From the NCBI GenBank assembly GCA_030390025.1, contig CM059437.1:54684001-54748000 (forward strand): DNA of 64,000 bases, read 5' to 3'. The stretch is from Squalus acanthias (taxonomy: Eukaryota). The notes beneath the pieces are model-generated. The model searched no databases. It saw nothing but the letters and a program-made list of their open reading frames with translations, and was not told the DNA's origin. Shown here piece after piece: positions 8,874-64,000 of the stretch (the stretch's first letter is position 1; every line of letters begins with the position of its first letter). The position numbers and the translations under genes were made by a program.

Positions 8874-8968
8874 GAAATAGCAACAGAAATCACTGGAAAA
8901 ACTCAGCAGGCCAGGCAGCATCCGTGGAGAGAGAAACAGAGTTAACGTTTCAGGTCGAAGACTTTTCG
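8874..8968 (-). mobile_element. Penelope-like element terminal fragment with a minimal hammerhead-like motif
   Basis: Homologous to 40820-40920. Flanked by the direct repeat TCAAAACCATAA (8862-8873 and 8969-8980). Confidence 0.6.
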
Positions 8969-12992: not shown

Positions 12993-13661
12993 ACCTGGTT
13001 GATGGGTCTAGCGAAGGTCCCCGGTCAGCTGGGTCGGAGGATGGTGGCGGTGAAGGGGAAGGCCTGCTGACTCCAGCTCCGACGCTGGCGCCGGGGGTTT
13101 TGGGAGAACTGGCACTAATGTACTCCCCGGTTTCCCCGTGCACCCCGGTGCCGGGGACGGAGGGGGGCCCTGAGCCGCCGCCGCATCCTGACCTGGCGCC
13201 TCTGGAGGAGCCCAGGGAGGACTCCTCTGCCGCCGATCCTGGGGGTGGGATCGGGGCAGAGGTAGGGGCTGCTGATGGCGACCCCCCAGAGGAGGACGGG
13301 GACCCGGCGGAGGACACTAAGGATGACACGGACTCTGTCGCCAGCGAGGCAGCAGATGCCCTCATGACCCCCTCCGGGCCACCCCTCATCCCTGTTGTGG
13401 AACTCCGGGACTTTGTGGCCATGTGCCAGGGTCGCCAAGATATAATCCGGCTGGCCATTGATAAATGGTCGGATCTGGCGCTGCTCATTTGCCCTGTCCA
13501 TGCCGCCATCAAAACCATGGGCACAGATGGAGGCTTGGGCCCGGCCGAGCGGCGTCGGATCCGGAAGTTCCTCGCTGGGCTGAGAAGGGAGTGGCGGTCG
13601 ACTAGCAGCCGCGCTCCCTCCTCCCATTAGGGTTAGGTAGATGTTGCACTATGCTCTTGTC

Positions 13662-16600: not shown

Positions 16601-17554
16601 GTCGGGGACCTGATCGATGGCGGAGGAGTGGGTTGGATGGCAGTGGAGGAGTTGGCGCAGTGCCTCTCCTGGGTCAACATCTGGCGCGCGGCCAAAGCCA
16701 TCGAGTCGCTGAAAGTGGCACGGGGCCCGGACTCCACTAGGTGTATCGAGGAGGCTCAAGCACGTGGGGCGATCCCGTCTCAACTGACCCCCAGTTCGGA
16801 CGGAATTCCTCATCGGCGCACGGCCCCAAAACCCCTCTCAGGAACCGACGCCTCACAACTTGAGCTGGCTCGGGGAAATGCCCTCCGTGCCCTTTAGTTC
16901 TGCACGGAGGGGTTTCCTGTACGGGCTGCTCCTGCACACTCTCCACTTTGCCATCTTCGCCTGCAGTCCGGACACGCCTTGGCGTGCCATCTTGTCATCC
17001 GGCGGAGGCAGAGGTCCCCAATGGAGGGCTCTCTATGTGGAATCCTCCCCTTTTCTATTGGGGACTTGGCCTGGAGGGTGTTGCACGGAGCAGTCCCGTG
17101 CAATCAGCTTTTAAGTAGTTTCACGGAATCCCAGGGCACCTGTCCTTTTTGCGGCCTGGAGGAGTCTGTTTTCCATGTGTATATAGAGTGCCAGAGGTTG
17201 CAGCTCCTGTTATATTATTTGAAGGGGCTGCTCCTCGGTTTTTGGTTGCACTTCAGTCCCACGCTCCTGATCTACGGTCACCCGGTGCGGAGGGGAGCGG
17301 ACAGGTCGGAGGACCACCTCGTAGGACTGCTCCTGGGCCTGGCCAAAGTGGCCATTAACAGGTCCAGGCAGAGGGCGGTCGAGGGGGTCGTTCGGCCCAA
17401 TTGCCTGCCTCTCTTCCGCGGCTATGTTTGTTTTCGGGTGGCCCTGGAGATGGAGCACGTGGTGACCGCTGGCACACTTGAAGCCTTCCGAGAACGGTGG
17501 GCACCGCGGGGACTGGAGTGCATCATCTACCCGGACAATGTAATTTTAATTTAA
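13662..17554 (+). pseudogene. Tx1 ORF2 (APE endonuclease, RT, C-terminal CCHC), disabled
   Basis: Motifs MKITIACLNINGSR, FLQETH, GGDFNC, LDQEKAFDRV, SAYANDV (YADD mutated) and CPFCGLEESVFHVYIEC. Multiple stops and frameshifts. Confidence 0.9.
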
Positions 17555-17760
17555 TGTGAAGAGTTTTAGTTGAAGTTCTGTTAATTTACAGTAGTTATAT
17601 GTTTACTCAAAAGAGTACAAGGCCTACAATTCAGAGCAGCTGAAGGCAGTTAATTAGGGGAACTTGATTAAACTGGTTCTCCTGTAGCAAGGACAGGGCC
17701 CAGCAAGCTCTTTTCTTTCAAGGCCTATAAAAAAAGACTTTGAAGAGCGATTTTGCTCCG

Positions 17761-17852
17761 AGTGCAGTTTCAACAGAATGCTGCGAGTTGGGTGAGTCAG
17801 GGAGTTAGGTGAGGAGTGGAAAGAGGAGCTCCCTTGCTTCGCCTTTGTTTTT
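17761..17852 (+). repeat. Direct repeat X, copy 0 (Tx1 to CR1 junction)
   Basis: AGTGCAGTTTCAACAG...CCTTTGTTTTT recurs at 45696, 53118 and 60494. It starts 35 nt after TATAAAA (17726). Confidence 0.85.
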
Positions 17853-20800: not shown

Positions 20801-22045
20801 AGGGTACTCAGCATGGCTTTGTCAGGGGAGATCATGTCCAACCAATTTGATTGAATTTTTCGAGGGGGTGACAAGGTCCGTGGATGAGGGTAGTACAGTT
20901 GATGTAGTCTACATGGACTTCAGTAAGGCTTTTGACAAAGTCCCGCATAGGAGACTGGTCAAGAAGGTAAGAGCCCATGGGATCCAGGGCAATTTGGCAC
21001 ATTGGATCCAAAATTGGCTTCGTGGCAGGAGGCAGAGGGTGATGGTCGAAGGTTGTTTTGTGACTGGAAACCTGTGTCCAGTGGTGCACCGCAGGGATCG
21101 GTGCTGGGTCCTTTGCTGTTTGTAGTGTACATTCATGATTTAGATATGAATGTAGGAGGTATGATCAGTAAGTTCGCAGATGACACGAAAATTGGTGGAG
21201 TGGTAAATAGCGAGGAGGGACGCTTCAGGCTACAGGATGATATAGACGGGTTGATTAGATGGGCAGAACAGTGGCAAATGGAATTTAACCCTGAAAAGTG
21301 TGAGGTGATGCATTTTGGGAGGACTAACAAGGCAAGGGAATACACAACGAATGGTAGGACCCACTGAAGTACAGAGGATCAGAGGACCTTGGTGTGAATG
21401 TACATAGATCCCTGAAGGCAACAGGCCAGGCAGATAAGGTGGTTAAAAAGGCATATGGGATACTTGCCTTCATTAGCTGAGGCATAGAATGTAAGAGCAG
21501 GGAGGTTATGATGTAGCTGTACAAAACGCTAGTTAGGCCACAGGAGGGATGTGATTGCATTGGAGAGGGTGCAGAGCAGATTCACCAGAATGTTACCTGG
21601 GCTGGAGCGCTTCAGCTAACAAGAGAGACTGGACAGGCTGGGGTTGTTTTCCTTCGAGCAGAGAAGGCTGAGGGGGGACCTGACAGAGGTGTACAAAATT
21701 ATGAGGGGCATAGATAGGGTAGATAGAAAGGAACTTTTCCCCTTCGTATAGGGGTCGATAAACAGGGGCCATAGTTTCAAGTTAAGGGGCAGGAGGTTTA
21801 GAGGGGATTTGAGGAAAATATTTTTCACCCAGAGGGTGGTTGGAATCTTAAACTCACTGCCTGAAAGGGTGATAGAGGCAGGAGCCATCACAACATTCAA
21901 GAAGCATTTAGATGAGCACTTGAAACGCCGTACCATACAAGGCTACGGACCAAATGCTGGACAATGGGATTAGAATAAACGGGGCTTGATGGCCGGTGCG
22001 GACACGATGAGCCGAAGGGCCTCTTTCTGTGCTGTATAACTCAAT
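17853..22045 (+). mobile_element. Near full-length CR1 LINE with 5' UTR, ORF1 and ORF2 (disabled)
   Basis: ORF1 starts at 18141. ORF2 has EN (AITETW) and RT (FADD) motifs broken by stops and frameshifts. The 3' end reads CTGTGCTGTATAACTC. A paralogue lies at 60585-64000. Confidence 0.9.
18141..19104 (+). pseudogene. CR1 ORF1 (Cys-rich zinc finger, coiled coil, SGNH/GDSL esterase-like domain)
   Basis: CSSCAMW...CRKCLQLQLL, IVTGDSLVR, VHIGTN and DGLHLN blocks. Frameshift near 18215 and a stop at 19003. Confidence 0.85.
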
Positions 22046-22938
22046 GGGGTAAAAATTCACTTGGTTGCGCCTCCCGTTAGCGCCTTAAGAGGGCGCTAAT
22101 GGGGCGCAAAGCCGCTAACGCCCGGGCGCAGCGATGTTTGCGCCGCTCGAGAACTTAACTTGAGATTGTGCGGCGGCGCTAAAACTTACCGCTGCGACCA
22201 CCTGCGCGCGCAGATTGTGACGTCATTCCATGGTGCAACGCCCTTGTGGCGCCCCGGAGCGGAAATTGAGTGGCGCCCCCTGCCTTACCGCCTGGCGCAT
22301 CCAACGACCAGAAGACTGGAACGCTATCAATCGGTGTGGGGCTGGGGGGGGCGCTATTTAAAGAGGGCCTCTTCCTGTCTTTTATTGTTGGTGGCATTTT
22401 TGAACTACGCATTCTGAGAGAGAGAGGGAGAGACTTCTGAAGAGATTCAACGTTGTGTGAAGGAGTTTTTGGTACTGAGCAGCACTTTGCAGGTTCATTT
22501 TGATTTGCCATTCCTTGTATCGATTTAGCAGAGACTGTGGGAGCTGCACTCTGAGCTCTTTGCCTGGTACTCTCCATTGTTCTTTCCAGCACATTTGATG
22601 TGCAAGTCTCTCCAGGCCGAGATTCAAGGCTGCAATGAACAGGATGTGGATGGAAAGCAAGATTAACCATCCCCTTTAAGAACTGGCCCGTGCCATTGTG
22701 TGTGTGTTCCATTGCTGACTGACATTACATGAGCTTCGCCAGCGCTCTGAGTTAGCGCCTCACTCCTTGGCCTTTGCGCCTTAAGACAGGTGTGCAGCGC
22801 CTGATTTAGTGCTCCACTCACCTCCTGGGGCGGTAAAAGTGAAGTTTCCAGTCAGTGCCGATAATTAGCGCCAGGCGCTAATATTTGCGTCCAGACGATA
22901 TTTGCGCCCCAAATGGGGCGCGACCTAATTTTTACCCC
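22046..22938. mobile_element. ~890-bp Harbinger-like MITE, copy 2 (inverted relative to copy 1)
   Basis: Same TIRs as copy 1. The internal sequence is nearly identical to the reverse complement of 5814-6707. Confidence 0.85.
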
Positions 22939-22989
22939 TAAGTCTATTGTTTCCGTCAAGAAATGTTAAACTTTTGTCACCCATCGTGT

Positions 22990-44771: not shown

Positions 44772-45695
44772 TGCTGAGGCCCCAATATACATCCCTAGGG
44801 ATTACCATTTGTCTTTTCCCGCCCATCAGTGAACGAAACATTTATACCTACTCTATATCTCCTACCTCCCAATCAATTACAAATTAGTGGCTACCTTATA
44901 TTTATGTCTCCCTGTTCTAGACTCATCCGCAAGTGGAAACACTGTATCCACGTTCCCCCTATCTAACTCCTTCATAATTTTAAACACTTCAATCAAGTCT
45001 CCTTTTAGCATCCTCTTTCAGAGATAAGCGACCAGCCTGTATATATTTTCCTGAAAGTTGCATCCTCCAAATTCTGTTAACATCCTTGAAACTCTTTTCT
45101 GAATTTTCTCCAGTGCTTCAATGTCTTTTTTCGAGCATGGAGACCAGAATATTGCAAAGTACTCCAAGTGTGTTCTCACCTAAATTCTATATAAATGTAA
45201 CATTACCTTTCTGCTTTTGTATTCTATTTTCTTAGAAAGAGCCCCAGTACTTTGATTGCACCATTTATGAACATAACAACTTGTGCTGCTCCTTTTAGCG
45301 ATTTATGCATCTGCAGTCCCAATCAGTCTGAACAAAGTAGATTATGTACTAAAAGGATACCAAGTTTGTGATTAGCGTTAAGGTGAATTTACGGAGTGCG
45401 ATTCTTATCTGAGCGTCAGCGAATCTGCCGTTGAGTTGCTGCTAATATCGCTTGCTTCAATATAACTATTATTCAGCAATAATTAACGGAATCGAGTCGT
45501 TACGAAAGAAAGCATGCAATGGCAGAAATTGTACCGTGGTAGGTACGAGGTATCTAAAAGGAAGGCGGTCACAGAGTTTGTCCTGAATTTGTGTAACCAG
45601 ATGATTTAGAAAAAATATAACACGTGCTTTGAATTGTTCACATAAACACACATACACAAGGTTCAGCTTCTTGCCCACACGGAGGAATTCAGTCA

Positions 45696-45788
45696 AGTGC
45701 GGTTTAAACAGAGTGCTGGGAGTTGGGTGAGTCAGGGAGTCAGGTGAAGAGTTGAAGGAGGAGCTCCCTTGCTTCGCCTTTGCTTTTG
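45696..45788 (+). repeat. Direct repeat X, copy 1 (5' boundary of the Tx1 array)
   Basis: Starts abruptly in non-homologous flank, with no TATA segment upstream. Confidence 0.85.
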
Positions 45789-46888
45789 TGACACAGGCTG
45801 CGCGATTCTCAGCTCAGCTCAGCTCGGTGCTGTGTGAACGGGACCGAGTGTAGTTTCAACCAGAGTGCTGAGAATAGGAGAGGAAAGGAAAGGAAATATC
45901 TCTCTTTCTGTGCCTAGGAGGAGACAGAAGACAGAGCGACGAAGGACAGAGTGGAGACCCTTTCCACCTCCACCACGCCTGCAGCTACAAGCTACAACTA
46001 CAGCAACTTCTACTGCTGAGGTACCAGAGGGGAGAGAGGAGAGGGGAGTGGAAAGGAGACCAATAACAACAACGGAGGGAAGCCATTCCATCACTGCCTC
46101 CCCAACTGGTCTCCATTACGAGAGAGGGAGAGTGGAGAAACAAAACCAACACCTGCTTGGAAGGAGGGAGAGCGAGCCATCGAGGAGAATAACATCTAGA
46201 GGTGGGTGTTAAAAAGGGCACTCTCCAAAAGACTTTGTATTTGAGGTGGGGGGAGGAAAGAAGAAGGAGAACACCGGGATAACAAGGGGTGTGTGTGAGT
46301 GTGTGTGGCTCTTGCTAATAACTTGGCCACACACACCATCAACAAGCACCCCTTGCCTATTGCTTCACCTGGGACAGCTGGAGCTGCCCAGAGAAAGTCA
46401 TCAATCTATTTCCCCGTCTACAACATCGTTGAGACCTGGTGGTGGACTGAGCCTGAGCATCTCCAGCTTTATTTGTTTCCCAGGTGAAGACATCTTCTCC
46501 CCCCACCAGAAGACCATCAACAAAGACTATAATTATCATCGAAGAGTGCCCCCCCCCCTACCCCCGCCCGGAAGCACCCACCCACCCACTATCCTGAGTG
46601 GCGAACAGGCCCCTGCGGCCTCCCTCCTTCCTTCCCTCTCTCTCTCTCTCTCTCCCTCTCTGCCTCTCTCTCTCTAACGAGGCACCTCTAATTGTATTAA
46701 TTACCCAATTGAGCAGAGGGGAGAAGGCCCCTCTCCCAATTCCAATCATCAAAGGGAGAGGTGTGCCTTCACTCTTAAAACAACCCCCTCTGCTCAGGGA
46801 CGAGACCAAAAAACCCACTACCGAGGCCATTTCAAACATCACCCGGCCTGTGACTTGGGGTGAGTGTAGCCCTTTATAACACCTCAGT

Positions 46889-48979
46889 ATGGCAAGCACA
46901 TCTTTGCCGGCGACAGGGCCAGCGAGGACGTACGCGGGTGTGGCAGCCACGGCCACAGCTGGTCCCGCTGCTTCTGCTGCCCCGTCGCCTTTCAGGCTAT
47001 TGACCAAAAAGCTGGGGTGAAGAGTTACACTCACCCCAACATGACCATAGAGGCTTGCATCAAAGCCATGGCTGGGGTAGTCGACCCCTCAGCCATCGTA
47101 GCGGCCTCTAAAATCTACGGAAAGGCTGTGTTCTTCCTGGGGTCGGAGCGGACGGTGTCCCTGGCCGTCACCACGGGGCTCACCATGGGCGGGACCTTCC
47201 TGCCAGTGGAGCCGCTCAAGGCCACCGCGCAGTGAATCGTACTATCAAACGTCCCGCCCTTTGTTCCGGTTGAGCTCCTCCTCCCCCACCTACGTCAACT
47301 GGGGGAGGTGAGGTCGGGGATTAATCGGATCCCGCTCGGCTACAGGGAGGCCAGCCTCCGGCATGTCTTCTCCTTCCGGCGCCAGCTGTTTATCCAGCTG
47401 GTGCGGGAGGAGGACACGGAGGGCGCGTTTAACGTCCAACACGAGGGGACCGCCTACCGCGTCTTCTGGACGTCGGATGGTGTGCGGTGCCACGCCTGTA
47501 AGGAGGTGGGGCACATAAGAAAGAACGGCCCCGCCTCCAAGGCCGCCAAAACATCTGAAGCGGCCAAGGCTGGCGCCGCCGCTGCTCCTCCCCCTGTTTC
47601 TGTCCACGCGTCTGCGACACCCGATGCGCGGTCGACGCCGGAGGTCGACGCCGTTGCGGCCTCCGGCATAGGGGAGGGGGAGCGTCCGATCGGAAGAAAG
47701 GTACGGAGGAAAACTAAACACCTTCAGGCGGGTCCTCCAGATGTACACGACGATTTACCCGCGCTTATGCCCCCGTACATTGCGTGGGTGGTGGTGGAGT
47801 TCGAGAGTGCGAGGGGCCTCGTGCCCGGGCCTGTGGCCGCAACTGCCAAGTCAGCAAAATCGAGACCTGCGGCCGTGACCGGGCCCGGGCCACCCGAGCA
47901 AACCGATCGACAGGGGGGAGCGGAGGTGGAGGCCTCGGTACACATGGAGGTCTCCCAACCTCCGTGTCCCTCCACACTGAAAAGGAGGTGCGACGCACTG
48001 GAGCAGGAGGAGGACCGTGAGGAACGGGGTCCCCCATCGCAAGGGGAGTCGTCGCTCACCGCGGGTGCTGCGCTCCCCCACACCGACACCGTCACAGTCA
48101 CCGACATCCGGCAGGGGTCGCCTGTCCCCCGGGAGGGTACGACAGATGAGTCTGTTCAGCCTGTGCCTCCCGGGGATGGGGAAGAGACGCTGCTCGTGGG
48201 GGGTGCCGCGGAACTACCCGCAGAGGGAAATTATACCGAACCGTTGTTTCTCGCCAGTTCGGGTGTCCTGGGGAGCAGGGTGGGCGAGGCCGAAGAGGCT
48301 CAGCCCGCCGTATACGGTAAGGACTACTCCTAGGTGCTGCTCGACCTGGTGGAGCAATTAAATCAAGGTCCCCGGTCCGCTGGGTTGGAGGATGGTGGCG
48401 GTGAAGGGGAATGCCCCCTGACTCCATCTCTGACGCTGGCACCGGGGGTGTTGGGGGAACTGGCACTAATGTACTCCCCGGTTTCCCCGTGCACCCCGGT
48501 GCCGGGGGCAGAGGGGGCCCTGGGCCGCCGCTGCTTCCTGACCCGGCGCCTCTGTAGGAGCCCAGGGAGGACTCCTCTGCCGCCGATCCTGGGGGTGGGA
48601 TCGGGGCAGAAGTAGGGCCAGCTGATGGCGACCCCCGGAGGAGGACGGGGACCCGGCGGAGGACACTGAGGATGACATGGACACTGTCACCAGCGAGGCG
48701 GCGGATACCCTCGTGCCCCCCTCCGGGAGCCCCCTCATCCCCGTTGTGGAACTCCGGGACTTTCTGGCATTGGGCCAGGTTCGCCAGGATATAATCCGGC
48801 TGGCCATTAATAAATGGTCGGTTCTGGCGCTGCTCGTTTGCTCCGTCCGCGCCGCCATCAAAACCAAGGGCGCGGACGGGGGCATGGGCCCGGCCGAGCA
48901 GCGTCGGATCCGGAAGTTCCTCGCTGGGCTTAGAAGGGAGTGGCGGTCGACTAGCGGCCGCGCTCCCTCCTCCCGTTAG
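46889..48979 (+). pseudogene. Tx1 ORF1, copy B
   Basis: Knuckle CHACKEVGHIRKNG. Stops at ~47233 and ~48331, plus frameshifts. Confidence 0.85.
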
Positions 48980-49010
48980 AGTAAGGTAGAGGTTGCACTA
49001 TGCTCTTGTC

Positions 49011-52000
49011 ATGAAGATAACCATAGCCAGCCTCAACATCAACGGCAGCAGAGAGGCACGCCGTAGATTTAATAACTTCTCAGCCCTTCGGGAAGGGAGG
49101 CATGCAGTGTGCTTCCTGCAGGAAACTCACAGCGTTCTGGGAGACGAGGCCACGTGGCTTCTGGAGTGGCGAGGAGGGGTCAGCATGAGTCACCTCTCCA
49201 ACATTTCCGGCAGGGTGGCTATCTTGCTGGCCCCGCATTTTCAGCCGGAGATCTTGGGGGTCAAGGAGTAGGTGCCGGACCGCATGCTCCAGGTCACTGT
49301 TCGCCTGGGGGGCGTGCCACTCCATTTAGTGAGCGTGTACATCCCCCAGGCCGGTGCGCAGCAAGTGCGCTTCTTCGAAGAAGTGTCCGCTCTTCTGGGT
49401 ACCATTGACGTCGGCGAGTGCGTCATCCTCGGGGGGGATTTTAATTGTACCCTCGAGGCGAGGGACCGTGCGGGTCCTCCGTGAAGCCTGGCGGCGACGG
49501 TGAAGTTGAGAGACCTGGTCGGGTCCTTCGACTTGGTGGACGTCTGGCGAAATCTCCATCCCGACTCCAGCGCCTTCACTTGGGTGGGGTCTGGAGGAGG
49601 AAGGTCCAGAATCGACCGCCTTTATATTTCCCCGGGCGTACGTCTCCTGCATTCCGGTGGCTTCCATGCGGCCGGTGCCATGCACGGACCACCACCTGGT
49701 GTGGGCGGAGCTCGCTCCGTTGCGGGTGCCGTGGGAGTCCGCATACTGGCATTTTAACAACCTGCTGCTGGAGGACGAGCGGTTCCATGGATTCGTTTCG
49801 TCGGTTCTGGGCCGACTGGAGAAGGAAGCGGGGAGGCTTCCCCTCCTTGAGGCTATGGTGGGACGTGGGCAAGGCTCACGTCTGTCTCTTCTGTCAGGAG
49901 CACGCGAGGGGGTCGACCAAGAGGCGGGAGGCCCGGGTCGGGCGGTTGGAGAGGGAGGTGCTCAACCTGGAGTCCCGTCTCGGTCAAGTCGTCAAAGACC
50001 CGGCCCTGCGGAAGGTGTATGAAGAGAAGAAGGGCGCACTGAAGGACCTGCAGCTCGTCGGGTACAAAAGGCGCATATGTGAGGTCGCGGATCCAGTTCC
50101 TCCGGGAACTGGAGTGCGGCTCCCCCTTCTTCTACTCGCTGGAAAAAAGACGAGGGGTCCGTAAGCAGCTCTTGGGGCTGCTGGCCGACGACGGATCTCT
50201 GGTCTCGGATCCGGAGGGGATCAGCGTGCAGACCCGGTCCTATTACGGGGCTCTGTTCTCTCCGGATCTGTCCAGCGAGGATGTGCGCAGAGTTTTGTGG
50301 GAGGACCTGCTGAAGGTCGGCGCGGAGGGCGCCGAAGAATTGGACGCTCCGCTAAGCTTGGTGGAGCTGACTGGCACCCTCGGCCAGCTCTCGAGGGGAA
50401 ATTCCCCGGGGCTGGACAGACTGACCGTGGAGTTCCAGAGGGCATTATGGGACATCTTGGGGGGCGACTACGCGCGGATCCGGGGGGAAAGTCTGGCAAC
50501 CGGGGAGATACCCCTCTCTTGGCGCAGGGCGGTCATCGTCCTGCTGCACAAGAGGGCTGATCTCCGCCTTTTAAAAAACTGGCGCCAGGTCTCCCTCCTC
50601 AGCACGGACTATAAAATTTTCACCACCACCATGTCTGCCCGCCTCGGCACCGTGCTGGCCCACATGATTCACCCCGACCAGTCCTACACGGTCCCGGGCC
50701 GGACAATCCACGACAACATCCATCTGGTCCGGGACCTGGTCCACCTTTCCCAGAGGGCTGGTCTGTCGGTCGCCTTCCTTTCCCTGGATCAGGAGAAGGC
50801 GTTCGACAGGGTGGATCGCGAGTATCTTTTCGGAACTCTGCGCGCATTCAGGTTCGGGACGCATTTTGTCGCCCGGATCCGACTTCTGTACGGCTCCACG
50901 GAGTGTCTGATTAAAGTTAACGGGACTTTGATGGTGCCCCTTCACTTCGGGAGGGTGGTACATCAGGGATGCCCGATGTCCGGTCAGTTATACGCCGTTT
51001 GCGTGGAGCCTTTCCTGTGCCTCTTGCGGAAGAGTTTGATGGGACTGGCTCTGCAAGGGCCGGGCGTGGAAGTCGTCCTCTCAGCTTACGCCGATGATTT
51101 GCTCCTCATGGTCACGGATCCCGTCGACTTGCGGAGGATGCAAGAATGCCAGCAGATTTACTCGGACGCATCCTCCGCCAGGATCAACTGGGAGAAATGT
51201 TCTGGACTCCTGGTGGGCCAGTGGCGGGTGGACTCCCTGCCGGAGGAGTTCAGGCCCTTCGCCTGGAGCACAACGCACCTCCTCTACTTCGTAGTCCACC
51301 TCGGCCCCACCGAGGACACCTGGCTACCGAACTGGCAAGGGCTGGAGGCCAAAGTCACCGCTCGCCTAGGACGCTGGACGGGGTTGCTCCGAGTGTTGTC
51401 CTACAGGGGTCGAGCGCTGGTCATAAACCAGCTGGTGGCCGCCATGTTGTGGTACCGGTTGGTCACTTTGATCCCTCCCCCTGCGTTTGTCGCCAAGATA
51501 CAGAAGATGCTCATCGACTTCTTCTGGGACAAAAGGAAGCACTGGGTCTCTGCCGCCGTTCTGTGTCTCCCGCTTAGGGAGGGTGGTCAGGCGCTGGTAC
51601 GCCTTCGCACCCAGGCAGTGACTTTCCATCTTCAGATGCTGCAGAGATACCTTTACGTCGAGAATCCTCCCAGATGGTGTGCGCTGGTGACGTATTTCTT
51701 CCGCCAGATGCACGGCCTCAACTATGACACGCAGCTCCTGTTTGTGGAATTGGGCCGCACTGCGAGCCTACCTGTGGCAGCTGCCTGTCTTCTACCAGGA
51801 ACTGCTATGGGTCTGGAACCAGGTCGCCTCCAGGCGGAGTTCTCCCCCGTCAGGAGTGGCGGCTCTCCTTCGGGAGCCGCTGCTCAGGAATCCGCACCTC
51901 GACATCTGATGGATCGGGTGGCTGGCAGAGGGCAGGGCTGTGCCTGGCAAGGTGACCAGAGTCGGGGACCTGCTCGATGGCGGAGGAGCGGGCTGGATGG

Positions 52001-52913
52001 CGCCAGCGGAGTTGGCGCGGCACCTCTCCTGGGTCGACGGCTGGCATGCGACCAAAGCCATCGAGTCGCTGAAAGTGGCACTTGGCCCGGACTCCACTAG
52101 GTGTATCGAGGAGGCTCAAGCACGTGGGGCGATCCCGTCCGAACTGACCTCCGTTCAGACAGAATTCCTCATCGGCGCGCGGCCCCGAAACCCCTCTCGG
52201 GAACCGGCACCTCACAACTTGAGCCGTCTCGGGGAAATGCCCTCCGTGCCCTTTAGTTCTGCACGGAGGGGTTTCCTGTACGGGCTGCTCCTGCACACTT
52301 TCCACTTTGTCATCTTCGCCTGCCATCCGACATACCTTGGCGTGCCATCTTGCCGTCCGGCAGAGGTGAAGATCCCCAATGGAGGGCTCTCTACGCGGGA
52401 GACCTCCCCTTTTCTATTGGGGACTTGGCCTGGAGGGTGTTGCACGGAGCAGTCCCGTGCAATCAGTTTTTAAGTAGGTTCACGGACTCCCAGGCCGCCT
52501 GTCTTTTTTGCCACCTCGAGGAGTCCGTGTTCCACGTGTACATAGATTGTGAGAGGTTGCAGCCCCTCTTTGAATATTTGAAGGGGCTGCTCCTCGCTTT
52601 TTGGTTGCACTTCAGTCCCACGCTCCTGATCTACGGTTACCCGGTGCGGAGGGGAGAGGGCGGGTCGGAGGACCTCCTCGTAGGACTGCTCCTGGGCCTG
52701 GCCAAAGTGGCCATTAACAGGTCCAGGCAGCGGGCGGTCGGGGGGGGCATTCGGCCCAATTGCCTGCCTCTCTTCCGCGGCTATGTTCGCACCCGGGTGG
52801 CCCTGGAGATGGAACACGCGGTGTCCGCCGGCACACTTGAAGCCTTCCGAGACCGGTGGGCGCTGCAGGGACTGGAGTGCATCGTCTCCCCGGGCAATGT
52901 TATTTTAATTTAA
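49011..52913 (+). pseudogene. Tx1 ORF2, copy B
   Basis: EN, RT (in ORF 50079-52100) and CLFCHLEESVFHVYIDC. Several stops and frameshifts. Confidence 0.9.
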
Positions 52914-53117
52914 TTCACCGCGATAAGTTTCATTTGAAGATTTGTTAAGTTACAATAGTTTATATTGACTCAAAAGAGTACAAGGCCTACAATTCAGTGC
53001 AGCTGAAGGCAGTTAATTAGGGGAACTTGATAAAACTGGTTCTCCTGTGGCAGGGCCCAGCAAGCTCCTTTGTTTCAAGGCCTATAAAAACAGGCTTTGA
53101 AGTGTGATTTTGCACTA

Positions 53118-53210
53118 AGTTCGGTTTAAACAGAGTGCTGCGAGTTGGGTGAGTCAGGTAGTCAGTTGAGGAGTGGAAGGAGGAGCTCCCTTGTTTCACC
53201 TTTGTTTTTG
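53118..53210 (+). repeat. Direct repeat X, copy 2 (Tx1 to Tx1 junction)
   Basis: Starts 35 nt after TATAAAA and is followed by the Tx1 5' UTR. Confidence 0.85.
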
Positions 53211-54263
53211 AGACACAGGCTGCGAGATTCTCAGCTCAGCTCAGTTCAGCTCGGTGCTGTGTGAATGGGACTGAGTGCAGTTTGCTGAGAAGAGGAGAGG
53301 AAAGGAGAGGTCTCTCTTTCTCTGTGCCTAGGAGGAGAAGAAGGAGCCACTAAGGGCAGAGCGGAGACTCTTTCCACCTCCACCACGCCTGCAGCTGCAG
53401 CTACAACTACAGCAATTACTACTGCTGAGGTGCCAGATGGGAGAGAGGGGAGGAGAGGAGAGAGAGGAGACCAACAACAACAACAGAGGGAAGCCTTTCC
53501 ATCACTGCCTCCCCAACTGGTCTCCATTACGAGAGAGGGGAGAACAAACCCAAGACTAACATCTGCTTGGAAGGAGGGAGAGCGAGCAATCCAGAACAAC
53601 ATCTAGAGGTGGATGTTAAAAAGGGCACTCTCCAAAAGACTTTGTATTTGAGGTGGGGGGAGGAAAGAAGAAGGAGAAGACCAGGAGAGCAAGGGGTGTG
53701 TGTGTGTGTGTGTGTGGCTAAAGGTAATAACTAGGCCACACACACCATCAACAAGCACCCCTTGCCTATTGCTTCACCTGGGACAGCTGGAGCTGCCCAG
53801 GCAAAGTCATCAATCTATTTTCCCATCTAGAACATCGTTAAGACCTGGTGGTGGACTGAGCCTGGGCATCTCCAGCTTTATTTTTTTCCCAGATGAAGAC
53901 ATCTTCTCCCCCCACCAGAAGACCATCAACAAAGACTATAATTAACATCGGAGAGTGCCCCCCCCTCCTGGAAGCACCCACCCACCCACTATCCTGAGTC
54001 GCGAAGAGGCCCCTGCGGCCTCCCTCCTTCCCACCCCTCTCTCTCTCTCTCTCTCTCTAACGAGGCACCTTCCCTATTAATTACCCAATTGAGCAGAGGG
54101 GAGAAGGCCCCTCTCCCAATTCCAATCATCAAAGGGAGAGGTGTGCCTTCATTTCTAAAACAACCCCCTCTGCTCGAGGAAAAGAAAAAAAAAACACCAA
54201 GGCAATATCAACATCACCCGGGCTGTGACTTGGGGTGGGTGTAGCCTTTTATACCACCTCAGT

Positions 54264-56363
54264 ATGGCGAGCACATCTTCGCCAGCGACGGGGCAAGCAA
54301 GGTCGTACATGGGTGTGGCAGCCACGGCCACAGCCAGTCCCGCTGCTTCTGCTGCCCCGTCGCCTTTCAGATTACTTACAAAAAAGCTGGGGGTAAAGAG
54401 CTACACTCACCCCAACATGACCATAGAGGTTTGCGTCAAAGCGATGGCTGGGGTAGTCGGCCCCTCAGCCATCGTAGCTGCCTCTAAAATGTACGGTAAG
54501 GCTGTGTTCTTCCTGGGGTCGGAGCGGGCGGTGTCCCTGGCCGTCACCAAGGGGCTCACCGTGGGTGGGACCTTCCTGCCGGTGGATCCGCTCGAGGCCA
54601 CCGCGCAGCGAATCATACTATCAAACGTCCCGCCCTTTGTTCCGGTTGAGCTCCTCCTCCCCCACCTACATCAACTGGGGGAGGTGAGGTCGGGGATTAA
54701 TCCGATCCCGCTCGGCTGCAGGGAGACCAGCCTCCGGCACATCTCCTCCTTCCGATGCCAGCTGTTTATCCAGCTGGTGCGGGAGGAGGACATGGAGGGC
54801 GCGTTTAACGTCCAACACGAGGGGACCGCCTACCGCGTCTTCTGGACGTCGGACGGTGTGCGGTGCCACGCCTGTAAGGAGGTGGGGCACATAAGAAAGA
54901 ACTGCCCCGCCTCCAAGGCCGCCAAAACATCCGAGGCGTCCAAGGCTGGCACCGCCGCCGCTCCTCCCCCTGTTTCTGTCTGCGCGTCCGCGACACCCAA
55001 TGCGCAGTCGACGCCGGAGGTCGACGCCGTCGCGGCCTCCGGCGGAGGGGAGGGGGAGAATCCAATCGGAAGGAAGGCGCGGAGGAAAACCAAACACCTT
55101 CAGGCGGGTCCACTATGAAGTACAGGACGAGCTACCTGAGCTTACGCCCCCGTACCTTGCGTGGGAGGCGGCGGTGCTCGAGAGTGCGGGGGGCATCGTG
55201 CCCGGTCCTGCGGCTGCAACCGCCGATGCGGCAAAATCAAGACCTGCGGCCGTGACCGGGCCCGGGCCCCCCGAGCAAACCGATCGACAGGGGAGAGCGG
55301 AAGTGGAGGCCTCAGTACACATGGAGGTCTCCCAACCTCCGTGTCCATTCACATTGAAAAGGAGGCACGACGCCCTGGAGGAGGAGGAGGACCACGAGGA
55401 ACAGGGTCCCCCCTCGCAAGGGGAGTCGTCGCTCGCCGCTGGCGCAGCACCTCACCCCCCCCCACCGACACCGTCACCGTCCCCGACATCCGGCAGGAGT
55501 TGCCTGTCCCCCGGGAGGGTACAACAGATGAGTCTGTCCAGCCTGTGCCTCCCGGGGATGGGGAAGAGACCCTGCTCGTGGGGGGGGCCGCGGAACTACC
55601 CGCTAACGGACGATATACGGAACCGTTGTTTCTCGCCAGGTCGGGCGTCCTGGGGACCGGGGCGGGCGAGGCCGATGAGGCTGAGCCCGCCATATACGGT
55701 AAAGACTACTCCCAGATGCTGCTCGACCTGGTTGAGCAATTAAATCGAAGTCCCCGGTCCGCTGGGTTGCAGGATGATGGCGGTGAAGGGGAAGGCCCCC
55801 TGACTCCGTCTCCGACGCTGGCGCCGGGGGTGTTGGGGGAACTGGCACTAATGTACTCCCTGGTTTCCCCGTGCACCCCAGTGCCGGGGGCAGAGGGGGG
55901 CCCCGAGCCACCGCTGCTTCCTGACACGGCGCCTCTGGAGGAGCCCAGGGAGGTCTCCTCTGCTGCCGATCCTGGGGTTGGGATCGGGGCAGAGGTAGGG
56001 CCAGCTGATAGCGGCCCCCCGGAGGAGGACGGGGACCCGGCGGAGGACACTGAGGATGACATGGACTCCGTCGCCAGCGAGGCGGTGGATACCCTCGTGC
56101 CCCCCTCCGGGTCCCCCCTCGTCCCCGTTGTGGAACTCCGGGACTTTGTGGCCATGGGCCAGGGTCGCCAGGATATAATCCAGCTGGCCATTGCTAAATG
56201 GTCGGATCTGGCGCTGCTCGTTTGCTCCGTCCGCGCCTGCCGTGAAAAACATGGGCGAGGACGGGGGCGTGGGCCCGGCCGAGCGGCGTCAGATCCGGAA
56301 GTTCCTCGCTGGCCTTGAAGGGAGTGGCGGTCGACTAGCGGCCGCGCTCCCTCCTCCCGTTAG
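54264..56363 (+). pseudogene. Tx1 ORF1, copy C
   Basis: Intact knuckle CHACKEVGHIRKNC, with frameshifts downstream. Confidence 0.85.
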
Positions 56364-56394
56364 AGTAAGGTAGAGGTTGCACTATGCTCTTGTC

Positions 56395-59300
56395 ATGAAG
56401 ATAACCATAGCCAGCCTTAACATCAACGGCAGCAGAGAGGCTAGCCGTAGATTTAATAACTTCTCGGCCCTTCGGGAAGGGAGGCATGCGGTGTGCTTCC
56501 TGCAGGAAACTCACACCATTCCGGGAGACGAGGCCACGTGTCTCCTGGAGTGGCGAGGAGGGGTCAGCATGAGTCACCTCTCCAACATTTCCGGCGGGGT
56601 GGCTATCTTGCTGGCCCCGCATTTTCAGCCGGAGATCTTGAGGGTCAAGGAGTATGTGCCGGACCGTATGCTCCAGGTCACTGTTCGCCTGGGGGGCGTG
56701 TCGCTCCATTTAGTGAACGTGTACGCCCCCCAGTCCGGTGCACAGCAAGTGCGCTTATTCGAAGAACTGTCCGCTCTTCTGGGCACCATCGACGTCAGCG
56801 AGTGCGTCATCCTCGGGGGGGATTTTAATTGTACCCTCGAGACGAGGGACCGTTCGGGTCCTCCGCGAAGCCTGGCGGCGACGGTGAAGTTGAGGGACCT
56901 GGTCCGGTCCTTCGACTTGGTTGACGTCTGGCGAAATCTCCATCCCGACTCCAGCGCCTTCACTTGGGTGGGGTCTGGAGGAGGAAGGTCCAGAATCGAC
57001 CGCCTTTATATTTCCCGGGCATACGTCTCCTGTGTTCCGCCGACTTCCATGCGGCCGGTGCTGTGCACGGACCACCAGCTGGTGTGGGCGGAGCTCGCTC
57101 CACTGCACGCGCCGGGGGGGCCTGCGTACTGTCATTTTAACAACCTGCTGCTGGAGGACGTGCGGTTCCAGGATTCGTTTCGCCGGATCTGGTCCGACTG
57201 GAGAAGTAAGCAGGGGGGCTTCCCCTCCTTGAGGCTATGATGGGATTGGGCAAGGCTCATGTCCGTCTCTTCTGTCAAGAGTACGCGAGGGGGTCGAGCA
57301 AGAGGCGGGAGGCCCGGGTCGGGCGGTTGGAGAGGGAGGTACTCGACCTGGAGTCCCGTCTCGGTCAAGTCATCAGAGACCCGGCCCTGCGGAAGGTGTA
57401 CGAAGAGAAGAAGGGCGCGCTGAAGGACCTGCAGCTGGTCGGGTCCCAAGGCACATACGTGAGGTTGCGGATCCAGTTCCTCCGGGAACTGGACCGTGGC
57501 TCCCCCTTCTTCTACTCGCTGCAAAAAGACGAGGGGTCCGTAAGCAGCTCTTGGGGCTGCTGGCCGACGACAGATCTCTGGTCTCGATCCGGAGGGGATC
57601 AGCGCGGAGACCCAGTCCTATTACGGGGCTCTGTTCTCTCCGGATCCGTCCAGCGAGGATGCGCGCAGAGTTTTGTGGGAGGACCTGCCGAAGGTCGGCG
57701 CGGAGGGCGCCGAAGAATTGGACGCTCCGCTAAGCTTGGCGGAGCTGACCGGCGCCCTCGGCCAGCTCTCGAGGGGAAAGTCCCCGGGGCTGGACGGACT
57801 GACCGTGGAGTTCCACAGGGCATTCTGGGACGGCTTGGGGGGCGACTACGCGTGGGTCCTGGGGGAAAGTCTGGCGACCAGGGAGATTCCCCTCTCTTGG
57901 CGCAGGGCGGTCATCATCCTGCTGCACAAGAGGGGTGATCTCCGCCTTTTAAAAAACTGGTGCCCGGTCTCCCTCCTCAGCACGGACTATAAAATTTTCG
58001 CCAGGGCCATGTCTGCCCGCCTCGGCACCATGCTGGCCCACATGATCCACCCCGACCAGTCCTACACGGTCCCGGGCCGGACAATCCACGACAACATCCA
58101 TCTGGTCCGGGACCTGATCCACCTTTCCCAGAGGGCTGGTCTGTCGGTCGCCGTCCTTTCCCTGGATCAGGAGAAGGCGTTCGACAGGGTGGAGCACGAG
58201 TATCTTTTTGGAACTCTGCACGCATTCGGGTTCGGGACGCATTTCCTCGCCCGGATCCGACTTCAGTACACCGCCGCGGAGTGTCTGATTAAAGTTAATG
58301 GCTCTTTGACGGCGCCACTTCACTTCGGGAGGGGGGTACGTCAGGGATTCCCCATGTCTGGTCAGTTATACGCCGTTTGCGTGGGGCCTTTCCTGCGCCT
58401 CTTGCGGAAGAGGTTGACAGGACTGGCTCTGCAAGGGCCGGGCATGGAGGTCGTCCTCTCAGCTTACGCCGATGACGTGCTCCTCATGATCACGGATCCC
58501 GTTGACTTGCGGAGGATGCGAGAATTCCAGCAGATTTACTCGGACGCATCCTCCGCCAGGATCAACTGGGAGAAATGTTCTGGACTCCTGGTGGGCCAGT
58601 GGCGGGTGGACTCCCTGCCGGAGGAGTTCAGGCCCTTCACCTGGAGCACAACGCACCTCCTCTACTTCGTAGTCTACCTCGGCCCCACCGAGGACACCTG
58701 GCTGGCGAACTGGCAAGAGCTGGAGGCCAAAGTCACCGCTCGCCTAGGACGCTGGACGGGGTTGCTCCGAGTGTTGTCCTACAGGGGTCGAGCGCTGGTC
58801 ATAAACCAGCTGGTGGCCGCCATGTTGTGGTACTGGTTAGTCACTTTGATCCCTCCCCCTGCGTTTGTCGCCAAGATACAGAAGATGCTCATCGACTTCT
58901 TCTGGGACAAAAGGAAGCACTGGGTCTCTGCCGTGGTTCTGTGTCTCCCGCTTAGGGATGGCGGTCAGGCGCTGGTGTGCCTTCGCACCCAGGTGGTGAC
59001 TTTCCATCTTCAGATGCTGCAGAGATATCTTTATGTCGAGAATCCTCCCAGATGGTGTGCGCTGGTGACGTATTTCTTCCGCCAGATACACGGCCTCAAT
59101 TATGACACGCAGCTCCTGTTTTTGGAATTGGGCCGACGCACACCTACCTGTGGGAGCTGCCTGTCTTCTACCAGGAACTGCTATGGGTCTGGAACCAAGT
59201 CTCCTCCAGGTGGGGTTCTCCCCCGTCAGGAGTGGCGGCTCTCCTTCGGGAGCCGCTACTCAGGAATCCGCACCTCCACGTCCGATGGATCGGGTGGCTG

Positions 59301-60289
59301 GCAGAGGGCAGGGCTGTGCCTGGCAAGGTGACCAGCGTCGGGGACCTGCTCGATGGCAGAGGTGCGGGATGGATGGCGCATGCGGAGTTGGCGCAGCACC
59401 TCTCCTGGGTCGATGTCTCCCGCGTGACCAAACCTATCGAGTCGCTGAAAGTGGCACAGGGCCCGGACTCCACTAGGTGTATCGAGGAGGCTCAAGCACG
59501 TGGGGCGATCCCGTCCGAACTGACCTCCGTTCAGACGGAATTCCTTATCGGCGCGCGGCCCCGAAACCCCTCTCAGGAACCGGCGCCTCACAACTTGAGC
59601 CGTCTCGGGGAAATACCCTCCGTGCCCTTTAGTTCTGCATGGAGGGGTTTCCTGTACGGGCTGCTCCTGCACACTTTCCACTTTGTCATCTTCGCCTGCC
59701 ATCTGGACACACCTTGGCGTGCCATCTTGCCGTCCGGCGGAGGCGAAGATCCCCAATGGAGGGCTCTCTACGCGTGAGTCCTCCCCTTTTCTATTGGGGA
59801 CTTGGCCTGGAGGGTGTTGCATGGAGCAGTCCCGTGCAATCAGTTTTTAAGTAGGTTCAAGGACTCCCAGACCGCCTGTCTTTTTTGCGGCCTCGAGGAG
59901 TCCGTGTTCCACGTGTATGTACAGTGTGAGAGGTTGCAGCCCCTCTTTGAATATTTGAAGGGCTGCTCCTCGCTTTTTGGTTGCACTTCAGTCCCACGCT
60001 CCTGATCTACAGTCACCCGGTGCGGAGGGGAGAGGGCAGGTCGGAGGACCTCCTCGTAGGACTGCTCCTGGACCTGGCCAAAGTGGCCATTAATAGGTCC
60101 AGGCAGCAGGCGGTCGAGGGGGTCGTTCGGCCCAATTGCCTGCCTCTCTTCCGTGGCTATGTTCGTGCCCGGGTGGCCCTGGAGATGGAGCACGCGGTGT
60201 CCGCCGGCACACTTGAAGCCTTCCGATACCGGTGGGCGCCACAGGGACTGGAGTGCATCGTCTCCTTGGGCAATGTCATTTTAATTTAA
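56395..60289 (+). pseudogene. Tx1 ORF2, copy C
   Basis: EN ORF 56377-57240, RT ORF 57673-59331 and CLFCGLEESVFHVYVQC. Contains stops and frameshifts. Confidence 0.9.
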
Positions 60290-60493
60290 TGGGATAATTT
60301 CATTTGAAGTTTTGTTAATTTACAGTCGTTTTATGTTGACTCAAAAGAGTACAAGGCCTACAATTCAGAGCAGCTGAAGGCAGTTAATTAGGGGAACTTG
60401 ATTAAACTGGTTCTCCTGTAGCAGGGCAGGGCCCAGCAAGCTCCTTTGTTTCAAGGCCTATAAAAACAGGCTTTGAAGTGTTATTTTGCACTG

Positions 60494-60584
60494 AGTGCGG
60501 TTTAAACAGAATGCTGCGAGTTGGGTGAGTCAGGAGTTAGGTGAGGAGTGGAAGGAGGAGCTCCCTTGCTTCACCTTTGTTTTT
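60494..60584 (+). repeat. Direct repeat X, copy 3 (Tx1 to CR1 junction)
   Basis: Same junction as 17761-17852, with TATAAAA at 60459. Confidence 0.85.
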
Positions 60585-63500
60585 CCTAACTTTTCACCCT
60601 GTAGGAATTGGTTCTTACTTTACACCAAGGAAAGAGTCCAAGAGCAGTCAAACAACCACAACTGAGAAACTGCTTAAGTAACGTCACATCCAGGGAAGGA
60701 GCTGATTGGTAAGTAGGACCTGGTGAGTATTTCTACAGTCCAGTCGTTAAAGTCAAAGTAATGTCTCTTGTTTAGAGTAAGTAGTGTTTAAAGGGAAGTA
60801 AGGTCCCTAGTGTATTTAATATTTTTTAATTTAAAGGGTGTAAATTAAGGGTAGGACATGGCAGGGCAGCTCGGCTGCGTGGAGTGCTCCTCCTGTGCTA
60901 TGTGGGAAGTCAGGGACACTTTTGGTGTCCAGGATGAACACATGTGCAGGAAGTGTCTCCAGCTGCAGCTACTCGAAATCCACGTTTCGGAGCTGGAGCT
61001 GTGGCTGGAGTCACTGTGGAGCATCCGCGAAGCTGAGATCTTCGTGGATTGCACGTTTAATGAGGTGGTCACACCACAGTTAAAAAGTGCAGGCAGGCAG
61101 GAAATGGGTGAACGCCAGACAGAGTAAAAGAACTAGGAAGGTAGTGCAGGAGTCCCCTGGGTCCATCTCACTCTCCGACAGATTTTCCATCTTGACTACT
61201 GCTGGGGGAGATGGTTTCTCAGGGGAATACAGCAAGAGCCAAGTCCATGGCACTATGAGCGGCTCAGCTGCACAGGAGGGGAGGAAAAAGAGTGGGAGAG
61301 CAATAGTGATAGGGAATGAGGTCCTGCAACAAGAATTTAGGGAGCTGGGTAGCAGATTAAAAAGCAGGATCTCAAAGGTTGTATACCCTGGATTACTCCC
61401 GGTGCCATGTGCTAGTGAGTATAGGAATAGGAGGATAGAGCAGATGAATGCGTGGCTAAAGAGCTGGTGCAGGAGTGAGGGCTTTAGTTTCCTGGATCAC
61501 TGGGTCTGCTTCTGCGGAAGGTGGGACCTGTACAAGTCAGACGGGTTGCACCTGAACCGGAATGGGACCAACATAATTGTGGGGAGGTTTGCTAGTACTG
61601 TTGCGGGGGGGAGGGGGGGGGGGTTAAACTAACTTGGCAGGGGGATGGGATACGGAGTGAAGCTATAGTAGGGGGTGATGCACACACAAATATAGAGGAA
61701 AAAACAAGTCAGCCTGGAAGGCAGAGCAAATATGTAATGGCACAAGGGAGTATGGCAAGGCTGGATGGCATTTATTTTAATGCAAGGAGTCTTGCGAGTA
61801 AGGCAAATGAATTGAAGGTGTTGATGAACACATGGGAGTATGATATTGTTGCTATCACAGAGACATGGTTGAGGGAGGGGCAGGACTGGCAGCTCAATAT
61901 TCCGGGGTATAGAATCTTCAGGCGAGACAGAGGGGGTGTAAAAGAGGAGGGGGTGTCGCAATACATAGAAACATAGAAACATAGAAACTAGGAGCAGGAG
62001 TAGGCCATTCGGCCCGTCGAGCCTGCTCCACCATTCAATACGATCATGGCTGATCATCCAAATCCAGTACCCTGTCCCTGCTTTCTAACACAGAATCCCC
62101 ATCGAGCCTGCACCAACACATATCCCACCCCATCCCCGTAACCCCACGTATTTAATTCCCCCGAACATATCCCATCCTATCCCTGTAACCCCACATATTT
62201 AATCCCCCCCTAACACTAAGGGTCAATTTATCATAGCCAAATATTAATCAAGCAGTCAATTACTACTGTAAGGAGGGATGATATCTTAGCAGGTTCCTCT
62301 AATGAGGCCATATGGGTAGAACTTAATAACAAAAAGTGGGTAAGCATATTGCTGGGAGTGTACTATAGGTCCCCAATCACTCAGGGGGAGATAGAGGAAC
62401 AGATATGTCGGCAAATCTCAGAGAAGTGTAGAAATAATAGGGTAATAATAGTTGGGGATTTCAACTGCCCCAATATTAACTGGGATAGTCAGAGTGTGAA
62501 AGGCTTAGAGGGTGCGGAATTCTTAAAGTGCATCCAGGAGAGCTTTCTGAGCCAGCATGTAGAAAAGTCCTACAAGAGAGGGGGGCGGTACTGGACCTAA
62601 TTCCAGGGAATGTAGCCGGGCAAGTGGCAGAAGTCGGAGAGCATTTTGGTGACAGTGACCACAATTCGGTGAGATTTAAGGTAGTCATGGAAAAGGACAA
62701 AGATGGACCGGAAATAAAGGTTCTAAATTGGGGGAAGGCCGATTTTAATATGATAAGGCAGGATCTGGCCAAAGTGGACTGGGATCAGCTACTTGCAGGA
62801 AAATCCACATCAGAGCAGTGGGAATCTTTCAGAAAGGAAATAGAGAGAGTACAACGCCAACATGTTCCCATAAAGGTCAAGGGTGGGACCAACAAACCCA
62901 GGGAACCCTGGATGTCAAAGGGATATACAAGAATGGATTAGGAAAAAAAGGTAGGCTTTTGGCAGATACAAACGACTAAAAGCAGTGGAAGCCCTGGAGG
63001 AATATAGAAAGTGCAGGGGGGTACTTCAAAAAGAAATTGGAGAGTGAAGAGGGAGCATGAAAAAACATTGGCGGGCAAAATAAAGGAAAATCCCAAGGTG
63101 TTTTATAAGTATATTAAGGGAAAGAGGATAACCAGGGAAAGAGTAGGGCCCATTAGGGACCAAGGTGGCAATCTGTGTGTAGAGCCGGAAGATGTAGGTG
63201 AGGATTTAAATGAATATTTTGCATCTGTGTTCACTATGGAGAAGGACGATGTAGGCATAGAAATCAGGCAGGGGGATTGTGATATACTTGAACAAATTAG
63301 CATTGAGAGGGAGGTAGTACTTGCGGTTTTAGCGGACTTAAAAGTGGATAAACCCCAGGCCCTGACGAGATGTATCCCAGGCTCCTGTGTGAGGCAAGGG
63401 AGGAGATTGCAGGGGCTCTGACACAAATTTTCAGAACCACTCTGGCCACAGGGGAGGTGCTAGAGGAGTGGAGGACAGCTAACGTAGTACCATTATTCAA

Positions 63501-64000
63501 GAAGGGTAGTAGGGATAAACCAGGGAATTACAGGACAGTGAGCCTAACATCAGTGGTGGGGAAATTATTGGAAACAATTCTGAGGGACAGAATCAGTCTC
63601 CACTTGGAGAGGCAAGGATTAATCAAGAATAGTCAGCATAGCTTTGTCAGGGGGAGATCATGTCTAACCAATTTGATTGAATTTTTCGAGGGGGTGACTC
63701 GGTGCGTGGGTGAGGGTAGTACAGTTGATGTGGTCTACATGGACTTCAGTAAGGCTTTTGACGAAGTCCCACATGGGAGACTGGTCAAGAAGGTAAGAGC
63801 CCATGGGATTCAGGGCAATTTGGCACATTGGATCCAAAATTGGCTTCGTGGCAGGAGGCAGAGGGTGATGGTCGAAGGTTGTTTTTGTGACTGGAAGCCT
63901 GTGTCCAGTGGTGTAGCGCAGGGATCGGTGCTGGGTCCTTTGCTGTTTGTAGTGTACATTAATGATTTAGATATGAATGCAGGAGGTATGATCAGTAAGT
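60585..64000 (+). mobile_element. CR1 LINE paralogous to 17853-22045; runs off the window
   Basis: ORF1 starts at 60858 and has an internal deletion near 61315. ORF2 EN/RT is broken by frameshifts and by an insertion at 61964-62238. Confidence 0.9.
61964..62238 (-). mobile_element. Chimeric retro-insert: CR1 3' end joined to a SINE-like fragment
   Basis: Absent from the paralogue, which reads GTCGCAATATTAATC at ~19406. It has a CATAGAAA tail, AATA at both junctions and an internal ~45-bp tandem duplication. Confidence 0.7.

Follow-up and report, generated by a model that had tools for sequence, protein, structure and literature searches.

How a retroelement without long terminal repeats (a non-LTR element) can retain a promoter that its own RNA does not include is a long-standing question, for which internal promoters, monomer arrays, co-transcription with the target and 3' promoters of the HeT-A type are the known answers. 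The question is raised by a head-to-tail chain of two Tx1-like long interspersed nuclear elements (LINEs) and one CR1 LINE in Squalus acanthias (GenBank assembly GCA_030390025.1, contig CM059437.1, here C13 of a 3.7-Gb genome), in which a repeat of about 92 bp (X) heads every unit. The stretch analyzed, referred to as the window, comprises 64,000 nucleotides (positions 54,684,001 to 54,748,000, forward strand), and genome-wide counts refer to this assembly. An earlier note on this DNA had suggested that Tx1 carries a 3' promoter by which it drives its downstream neighbor, as HeT-A does. We found that the supposed Tx1 3' promoter is the 5' segment of the CR1 element that Tx1 uses as its target. 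In the account that we consider probable, the Tx1-like LINE and a partner element, F2, both enter this segment (U) at its first base, and the X end of their complementary DNA (cDNA) pairs with a neighboring X, by which U and X are copied or an upstream spacer (Y) is deleted.

The layout described earlier was confirmed in most respects: the four X copies (17761, 45696, 53118, and 60494) are 90–91% identical over 92 bp, TATAAAA boxes at 17726, 53083, and 60459 each lie 35 nt ahead of an X, the outermost X has no TATA segment on its 5' side, TGAGTCA and GGTGAGT are present in 4/4 copies, and no poly(A) was seen at the Tx1 copies of the window. The units 45695–53209 and 53117–60584 form a direct repeat with 91.5% identity over 7.5 kb. 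All features of this chain, or train, lie on the plus strand. The outer X (45696–45787), the leader that the units share, sits directly on the flank and is followed by Tx1 copy a (45788–52978), which has broken open reading frames (ORFs) and the 3' end GACTCAAAAGAG. Next come a U unit that duplicates the CR1 TATA segment (52979–53117) and begins with TACAAGG, the Tx1 target, the middle X (53118–53209), which is the head of Tx1 copy b, and copy b itself (53210–60349). The train closes with the CR1's own TATA segment (U, 60350–60493; predicted start site near 60490), X91 (60494–60584), which is the leader of the CR1 5' untranslated region (UTR), and the CR1 LINE (60585–64000; ORF1 ATG near 60858), which extends about 1.5 kb past the window. 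As Tx1 ends at 52978 and 60349, the TATA segment adjoins Tx1 but lies outside it, and the repeated spacer between the elements, though real, is not X alone but U plus X (231–237 bp).

U (144 bp, from TACAAGG to CACTG) carries the TATA box and is part of a CR1 5' module with the order X41-Y-U-X91. CR1 5' sequence follows X in 30/30 of the best X loci (with a query that had a CR1-type end), and among 30 Y loci, 20 show the order Y-U-X-CR1 without any Tx1. The 3' promoter of the HeT-A type that had been ascribed to Tx1 is thus not its own, as 37 of the 100 listed Tx1 3' ends lack the TATA segment. One and the same X is joined by three types of CR1 5' module (A, B, and C): the sequence 5' of X in the first 100 listed of 353 matches was type B in 36, type C in 9, U in 20, unique in 33, and unclear in 2 (hand count). 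Type B, the commonest type among these, consists of tandem GC-rich monomers of about 92–97 bp before X (L018, L222, L224, L229), and the leader of type C, which has AATAAA at its end, is joined to a spliced X. Y was considered as a possible mobile passenger in its own right; two candidate solo Y ends proved to be deletions, and a comparison of X41 with the inner X in 23 modules, paralogues included, found 4 alleles in common where 1.5 were expected (p 0.055).

Of the first 100 listed Tx1 3' ends (of 109), 63 directly precede U and the other 37 are at different sites (hand count, with a search pattern that loses about a quarter of non-U flanks); of these 37, 32 start with TACA or TTACA. Simple X-headed Tx1 copies that were traced to their 3' end abut U in 20/20 cases (hand count). 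Short duplications with an insert were found at 14 of the first 100 listed Y ends (of 138), and 0/14 of these inserts run on into X. Twelve truncated Tx1 copies at Y were fetched, ten of them with an 11–14-bp duplication, and their 11 different truncation points mark them as separate events at one base. The decoy AAGGGATATACAAG, a 14-base look-alike in CR1 ORF2 with 5,966 intact copies, adjoined 0 of 100 listed Tx1 ends. Dispersed truncated copies end at the terminus GACTCAAAAGAG as well, with duplications of 9–16 bp in the 12 examined, and the target preference and short target duplication agree with the Tx1 clade. F2, a 1.8-kb non-coding partner that is presumably mobilized in trans, inserts at the same base as Tx1, and both begin with X88 followed by the same stretch of 60 bases. 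At non-U sites, tiny units made of a target duplication and the last 100–130 bp of Tx1 stand in tandems of two or three (L255, L256, L259), which shows that read-through RNA was re-mobilized.

Over 57 loci, passenger (Tx1 or F2) heads lie on bare flank in 29 cases, after Y-U in 9, after Tx1-U in 27, and after F2-U in 2. Full-length Tx1 copies come with a duplicated U+X (about 235 bp) or with the upstream Y lost. Tandem Tx1 pairs proved to be related, and therefore only neighboring U pairs that head different passengers, which cannot come from duplication of one passenger unit, were kept as evidence. Known paralogues and T2-type loci were removed before the allele and concordance counts, and the second train of the window was omitted from the U-pair test. 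Rare non-CpG alleles are held in common by 17 of 24 such pairs, with 30 shared alleles vs. 0.6 expected (maximum 4 in 2000 mismatched pairings), and adjacent pairs are closer to each other (distance 0.038 vs. 0.076), so that U was copied locally. The direction of copying can be read from the window's paralogue, where TTTC and AATG, two alleles of the X on the CR1 side, occur in the X that precedes Tx1 but not in the first X41. In C29, a two-monomer target that bears a private deletion recurs as a whole. A long target duplication at the CR1 5' end, the alternative offered in the earlier note, thereby stands in an extended form, the duplicated piece being U+X copied locally.

The window region itself is a segmental repeat of roughly 45–75 kb with at least three copies and flanks that are 94–98% identical (window 1–64000, L121, L123–L126). 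The first train in the window (plus strand) is one such paralogue of the 45696 train, with a Tx1 (1–17615) interrupted by later insertions and headed by X41-Y-U-X just upstream of the window, a U+X (17616–17852), and a CR1 (17853–22070) that represents the same original insertion as the CR1 at 60585; the two CR1s have 8.95 rare alleles per kb in common, with common flanks on both sides. The TATA box at 17726 is therefore present but does not count as an independent case. X41-Y-U is retained in two of the three paralogues, and in the 45696 train X directly adjoins the flank; with the flank matching, this places the loss of Y-U at 45696 in situ.

These end products suggest how insertion may proceed. 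On the simplest account, the nick in the target is flanked by X on both sides, and a full-length cDNA would end in the complement of X. Were this end to pair with the downstream X and be extended back through U, about 235 bp would be duplicated before the new element, and pairing with the upstream X would delete the spacer Y. Truncated cDNAs without X would join through an ordinary 11–14-bp overhang. The passenger|U junction would remain a target, so that repeated insertion could give X-Tx1-U-X-(Tx1 or F2)-U-X-CR1.

As to transcription, the 5' ends predicted to pile up at AGTGCGG do so genome-wide, but about 4 nt upstream of it, at about TATA+31. Of the 33 X starts on unique flanks (hand count, same 100 matches), 20 retain 3–7 nt of the U end, which places RNA starts near TATA+31. 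The exact spliced joint of the 80-nt GT..AG intron in the CR1 5' UTR (60525–60604, plus strand, donor within X) has 190 genomic copies (control 0); the donor is used, and the spliced copies are the product of spliced RNA templates, although they do not tell which sequence is the promoter. In four sequencing runs there are contigs over U, X, and the end of Tx1, and in two of the runs the spliced joint is seen; that they come from RNA is a guess, and none of the listed contigs bridges the Tx1|U junction. Transcription of each unit is likely to be driven by the U before it, with a start at about TATA+31, and the pile-up and the spliced copies agree with this; on this sequence evidence a duplicated U would be a borrowed promoter and would serve as U3-R does in an LTR.

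The competing possibility is that the promoter is internal to X, with its AP-1-like site and splice donor, the TATA box being incidental and the duplication of U a by-product of no benefit to Tx1. Internal promoters are used by most non-LTR elements (PMC1636488), most X41-Y-U-X-CR1 copies have the first X as their 5' end and lack a U before it, and X also follows the two other module types (the 36 B and 9 C cases above). The clustering of 5' ends at the canonical distance from the TATA box is not what such a promoter predicts, nor are the U remnants before X41 in some copies, which show that donors preceded by a U exist. In a sister CR1 module whose layout is the same, X'-Y'-TATA-X' (L227:980–1500), the X-like repeat is also preceded by a TATA-like box, and we consider the internal promoter unlikely.

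Likewise unlikely, in our view, is an origin from the dynamics of monomer arrays alone, in which CR1 modules first gain extra X41-Y-U monomers by unequal crossover or conversion, Tx1 and F2 replace Y, crossover through X yields the tandems, and insertion never duplicates U. Two-monomer modules do exist (C5_16, C1_77, C29), and the loss of Y-U in place at the outer X of the window would suit such a process, as would the window's Tx1 pair with its common junction variant and 15 shared rare alleles along its length. Against it, 0/20 passenger-free Y-U-X-CR1 loci have a second complete U (3 have remnants), as opposed to 24 U pairs heading different passengers in 57 loci. The X before Tx1 in the paralogue fits the alleles of X91 and not of X41, and at the C1615 locus a passenger or the CR1 stands behind every one of the four U.

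It is very unlikely that the trains had few origins and spread as whole RNAs of 12–20 kb, reverse transcribed from the CR1 tail and starting at X as the transcript start. The 29 passenger heads that meet unique flank at X, the fact that trains end in CR1, the 7-bp duplication that brackets the C8_16 train, and the 4/20 loci truncated without Y would all fit. Clear duplications were found only at C8_16 and C3_195, an automated duplication search around 19 trains was uninformative, and in the window trains none is callable, as their CR1 tail is occupied by DNA elements. A repeat of about 900 bp that resembles a DNA element lies in the CR1 tail of both window trains and of several others (window 22046–22942 and 5810–6707, L122:1468–2360). 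Co-inheritance of Tx1 and CR1 alleles was absent (Mantel p 0.37, 36 trains; r2 0.037 vs. 0.035, 34 trains), within the limited power that star-like families leave to these tests, and no sibling trains were found in the same comparison, from which it follows that the chains were mostly built in place. CR1 motif counts from 3' to 5' (17,629, 5,966, and 2,208) correspond to about 0.5 losses per kb and predict about 3% complete trains, a rate that may be too high should sister families be matched by the 3' motifs as well. The 20 sampled loci comprised 11 that were complete from X onward, 3 with truncated inserts at Y, 4 with a truncation but no Y, and 2 whose end was not reached, which makes complete trains far commoner than that rate permits. 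The three paralogues of one CR1 insertion, with 94–98% shared flanks and the CR1 shared for the two in the window, have Tx1 copies with only 0.14–0.72 rare alleles per kb in common vs. 22 per kb in a true paralogous pair, a natural experiment that conversion among the paralogues could blur. Whole-train copying was accordingly rejected as the main route on truncation counts, sibling trains, and concordance; it does occur, mainly in short F2 trains, to which the whole-RNA route probably applies. Finally, ownership of the TATA segment and X by Tx1 as its 3' end, driving the next element in the manner of HeT-A, has a negligible chance of being right: U-X lies behind every Tx1 of the window and behind 63/100 listed ends, but this ownership is refuted by the dispersed copies without U (the 37 ends that stop at GACTCAAAAGAG with unrelated flank), and U also occurs in Tx1-free CR1 copies (20/30) and after F2, and empty Y|U sites exist.

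Several points weigh against insertion at U with pairing through X, in addition to the limits on the concordance tests and on the truncation rate given above. The loci are top matches or first-listed matches and not a random census. The pairing step is read from its end products, and a bare X on the flank would equally be given by later recombination between X repeats. No rare allele at all is shared by 7 of the 24 U pairs, and two-monomer CR1 modules without a passenger (C5_16, C1_77) could be the source of a second U. The 4/20 loci truncated without Y have the appearance of whole-train copies cut short, and some copying of this kind is shown by those F2 trains that retain remnants of U (L294, L314, L298). 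Tandem Tx1 pairs share 15 (window), 6, 5, and 15 rare alleles vs. a background of 0.8; a first conclusion from nearest-neighbor distances, that tandem copies are unrelated, was dropped as the rare-allele test showed their kinship. The 15 alleles of the window pair are spread along its length and not clustered at the 5' end (such clustering is partly seen in C29, and not in C11), so the pair may be a local duplication, the second Tx1 deriving from the first either because RNA of that copy was inserted again or because X served for an early unequal crossover. The scenario that was named beforehand as fatal to the 3' promoter, dispersed copies without the TATA segment and an array made by local duplication, hence holds for the dispersed copies and for the kinship of this pair, but the system as a whole is not a local duplication.

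Tx1 families that target mobile elements, have partners, and stack in tandem have been described before (Kojima 2015, PMC4494074): Tx1L inserts into Tx1D, the crocodilian Tx1-Mar with SINEU into Mariner-N4_AMi, Tx1-8_Crp and Tx1-4_AMi into LTR elements, and Tx1-9_AMi into Harbinger. The system described here resembles them as a LINE with a non-autonomous partner, a common target in a mobile element, tandem stacking, and transcription proposed to start from the flank, but differs in that the target is the TATA segment of a LINE, that the element shares the leader of its target, and that about 235 bp of U+X are copied locally instead of a short duplication (16 bp for SINEU-3; PMC4494074). With HeT-A and TART it has in common a head-to-tail chain of non-LTR elements in which a promoter before each unit would drive the unit behind it, and TART has been proposed to rebuild its 5' end via a template jump between repeats (PMC1636488); here, however, the promoter would come from target DNA of another family and not from the upstream element, and the chains are dispersed rather than telomeric. 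Templated insertions of L1 copy less than 250 bp of site-adjacent DNA (22 cases; 10.1101/2024.08.27.596794), and recombination of L1 cDNA runs through 25–150 bp of homology (PMC13526784); in L1, as is proposed here, a cDNA pairs with nearby homologous DNA and a short adjacent stretch is duplicated, but these are rare accidents in L1, whereas here the homology is built into the head of the element and the outcome is regular. No LINE that targets the promoter of another LINE turned up in a literature search whose coverage of subscription papers and Repbase Reports was incomplete.

The 5' junctions of R2 are guided by homology. A target-like 5' sequence and reliance on the promoter of the target (target co-transcription, PMC4494074) link R2 and Keno with the Tx1 described here, for which the latter is predicted. 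Those elements insert downstream of the host promoter, and this Tx1 differs in inserting upstream of the TATA box, which it would have to copy. Mouse L1 is known for monomeric 5' promoters and promoter swapping. CR1-group elements carry 5' subunit arrays (PMC13343379). The several 5' module types (A, B, and C) on one LINE body and their repeated units resemble both, but type A has a TATA box of the external type and is the target of a second LINE.

If the proposed insertion scheme is true, a further answer to the opening question would be a promoter copied from the target at integration via a leader shared with that target, and cDNA-target pairing, a rare accident in L1, would become a regular way of joining the second end with two predictable outcomes. 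A further step, which we regard as possible though doubtful, is a promoter cycle of mutual dependence between the two LINEs. The type A CR1 would use an external TATA promoter and lose one U per round of copying, and Tx1-driven insertions would restore U+X, the inserts that do so being Tx1, F2, and perhaps the 150-nt X41-Y itself. CR1 would thereby regain promoter-bearing templates such as X-F2-U-X-CR1, and Tx1 would rebuild an LTR-like U3-R at integration from the DNA of another element.

Regarding coding content, the coding region of Tx1 copies a and b is broken into several frames. Copy b retains a piece of ORF1 with a CCHC-like knuckle (54159–55118), an apurinic/apyrimidinic endonuclease (APE, 56374–57240), and a reverse transcriptase (RT, 57544–59331). 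The APE endonuclease (PF03372), RT (PF00078), and a C-terminal zinc-binding region (PF13966) were matched in ORF2, in agreement with the Tx1 clade, and the ORF1 knuckle (PF00098) scored 20.3 bits against a cut-off of 20.8. The closest RT matches were turtle and teleost proteins, with 1 of 120 listed named as a Transposon TX1 protein (P0088, 41%). LTR retroelements own their terminal repeats, but here the repeats derive from the target, and no integrase domain was among the Pfam hits (a primer-binding site was not searched for). An Rfam search of 4 loci gave nothing near the gathering score. The terminal CR1 agrees with its clade in having an esterase ORF1, an APE-RT ORF2, a short-repeat 3' tail, and heavy 5' truncation; its domains were scored on the paralogous copy (PF13472 for the esterase ORF1 at 18118–19005, and PF14529), CR1 tails are of the CTCTATGA type, and a foreign CR1 3' piece lies inside the terminal CR1 at 61964–62239.

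The Tx1 5' UTR holds a second partial X (window 53270–53300 and 45845–45880), and several trains join U or X straight to it (Tx1 positions 62–135). In one train an 8-kb provirus-like element, identified by eye, lies antisense (L193:4688–9723), with a gag-like ORF with a CCHC motif, env-like pieces, and no RT among its ORFs of at least 150 aa; nearby C3 loci have a gap of a similar kind. Another Tx1/F2 lineage, which is younger and has copies about 99% alike (L042–L045, L055, L177, L189, L199, L202, L318–L320), targets a site 65 bp behind the splice donor of a repeated CpG-island promoter unit, and its head again starts with 40–56 bp of sequence from downstream of its target. A young Tx1-F2 composite seems to have inserted seamlessly at about position 532 of a full-length Tx1 (C2793, C1615, and C8:47.95 Mb; L172, L180, L183), and the three trains that bear it differ in their downstream parts.

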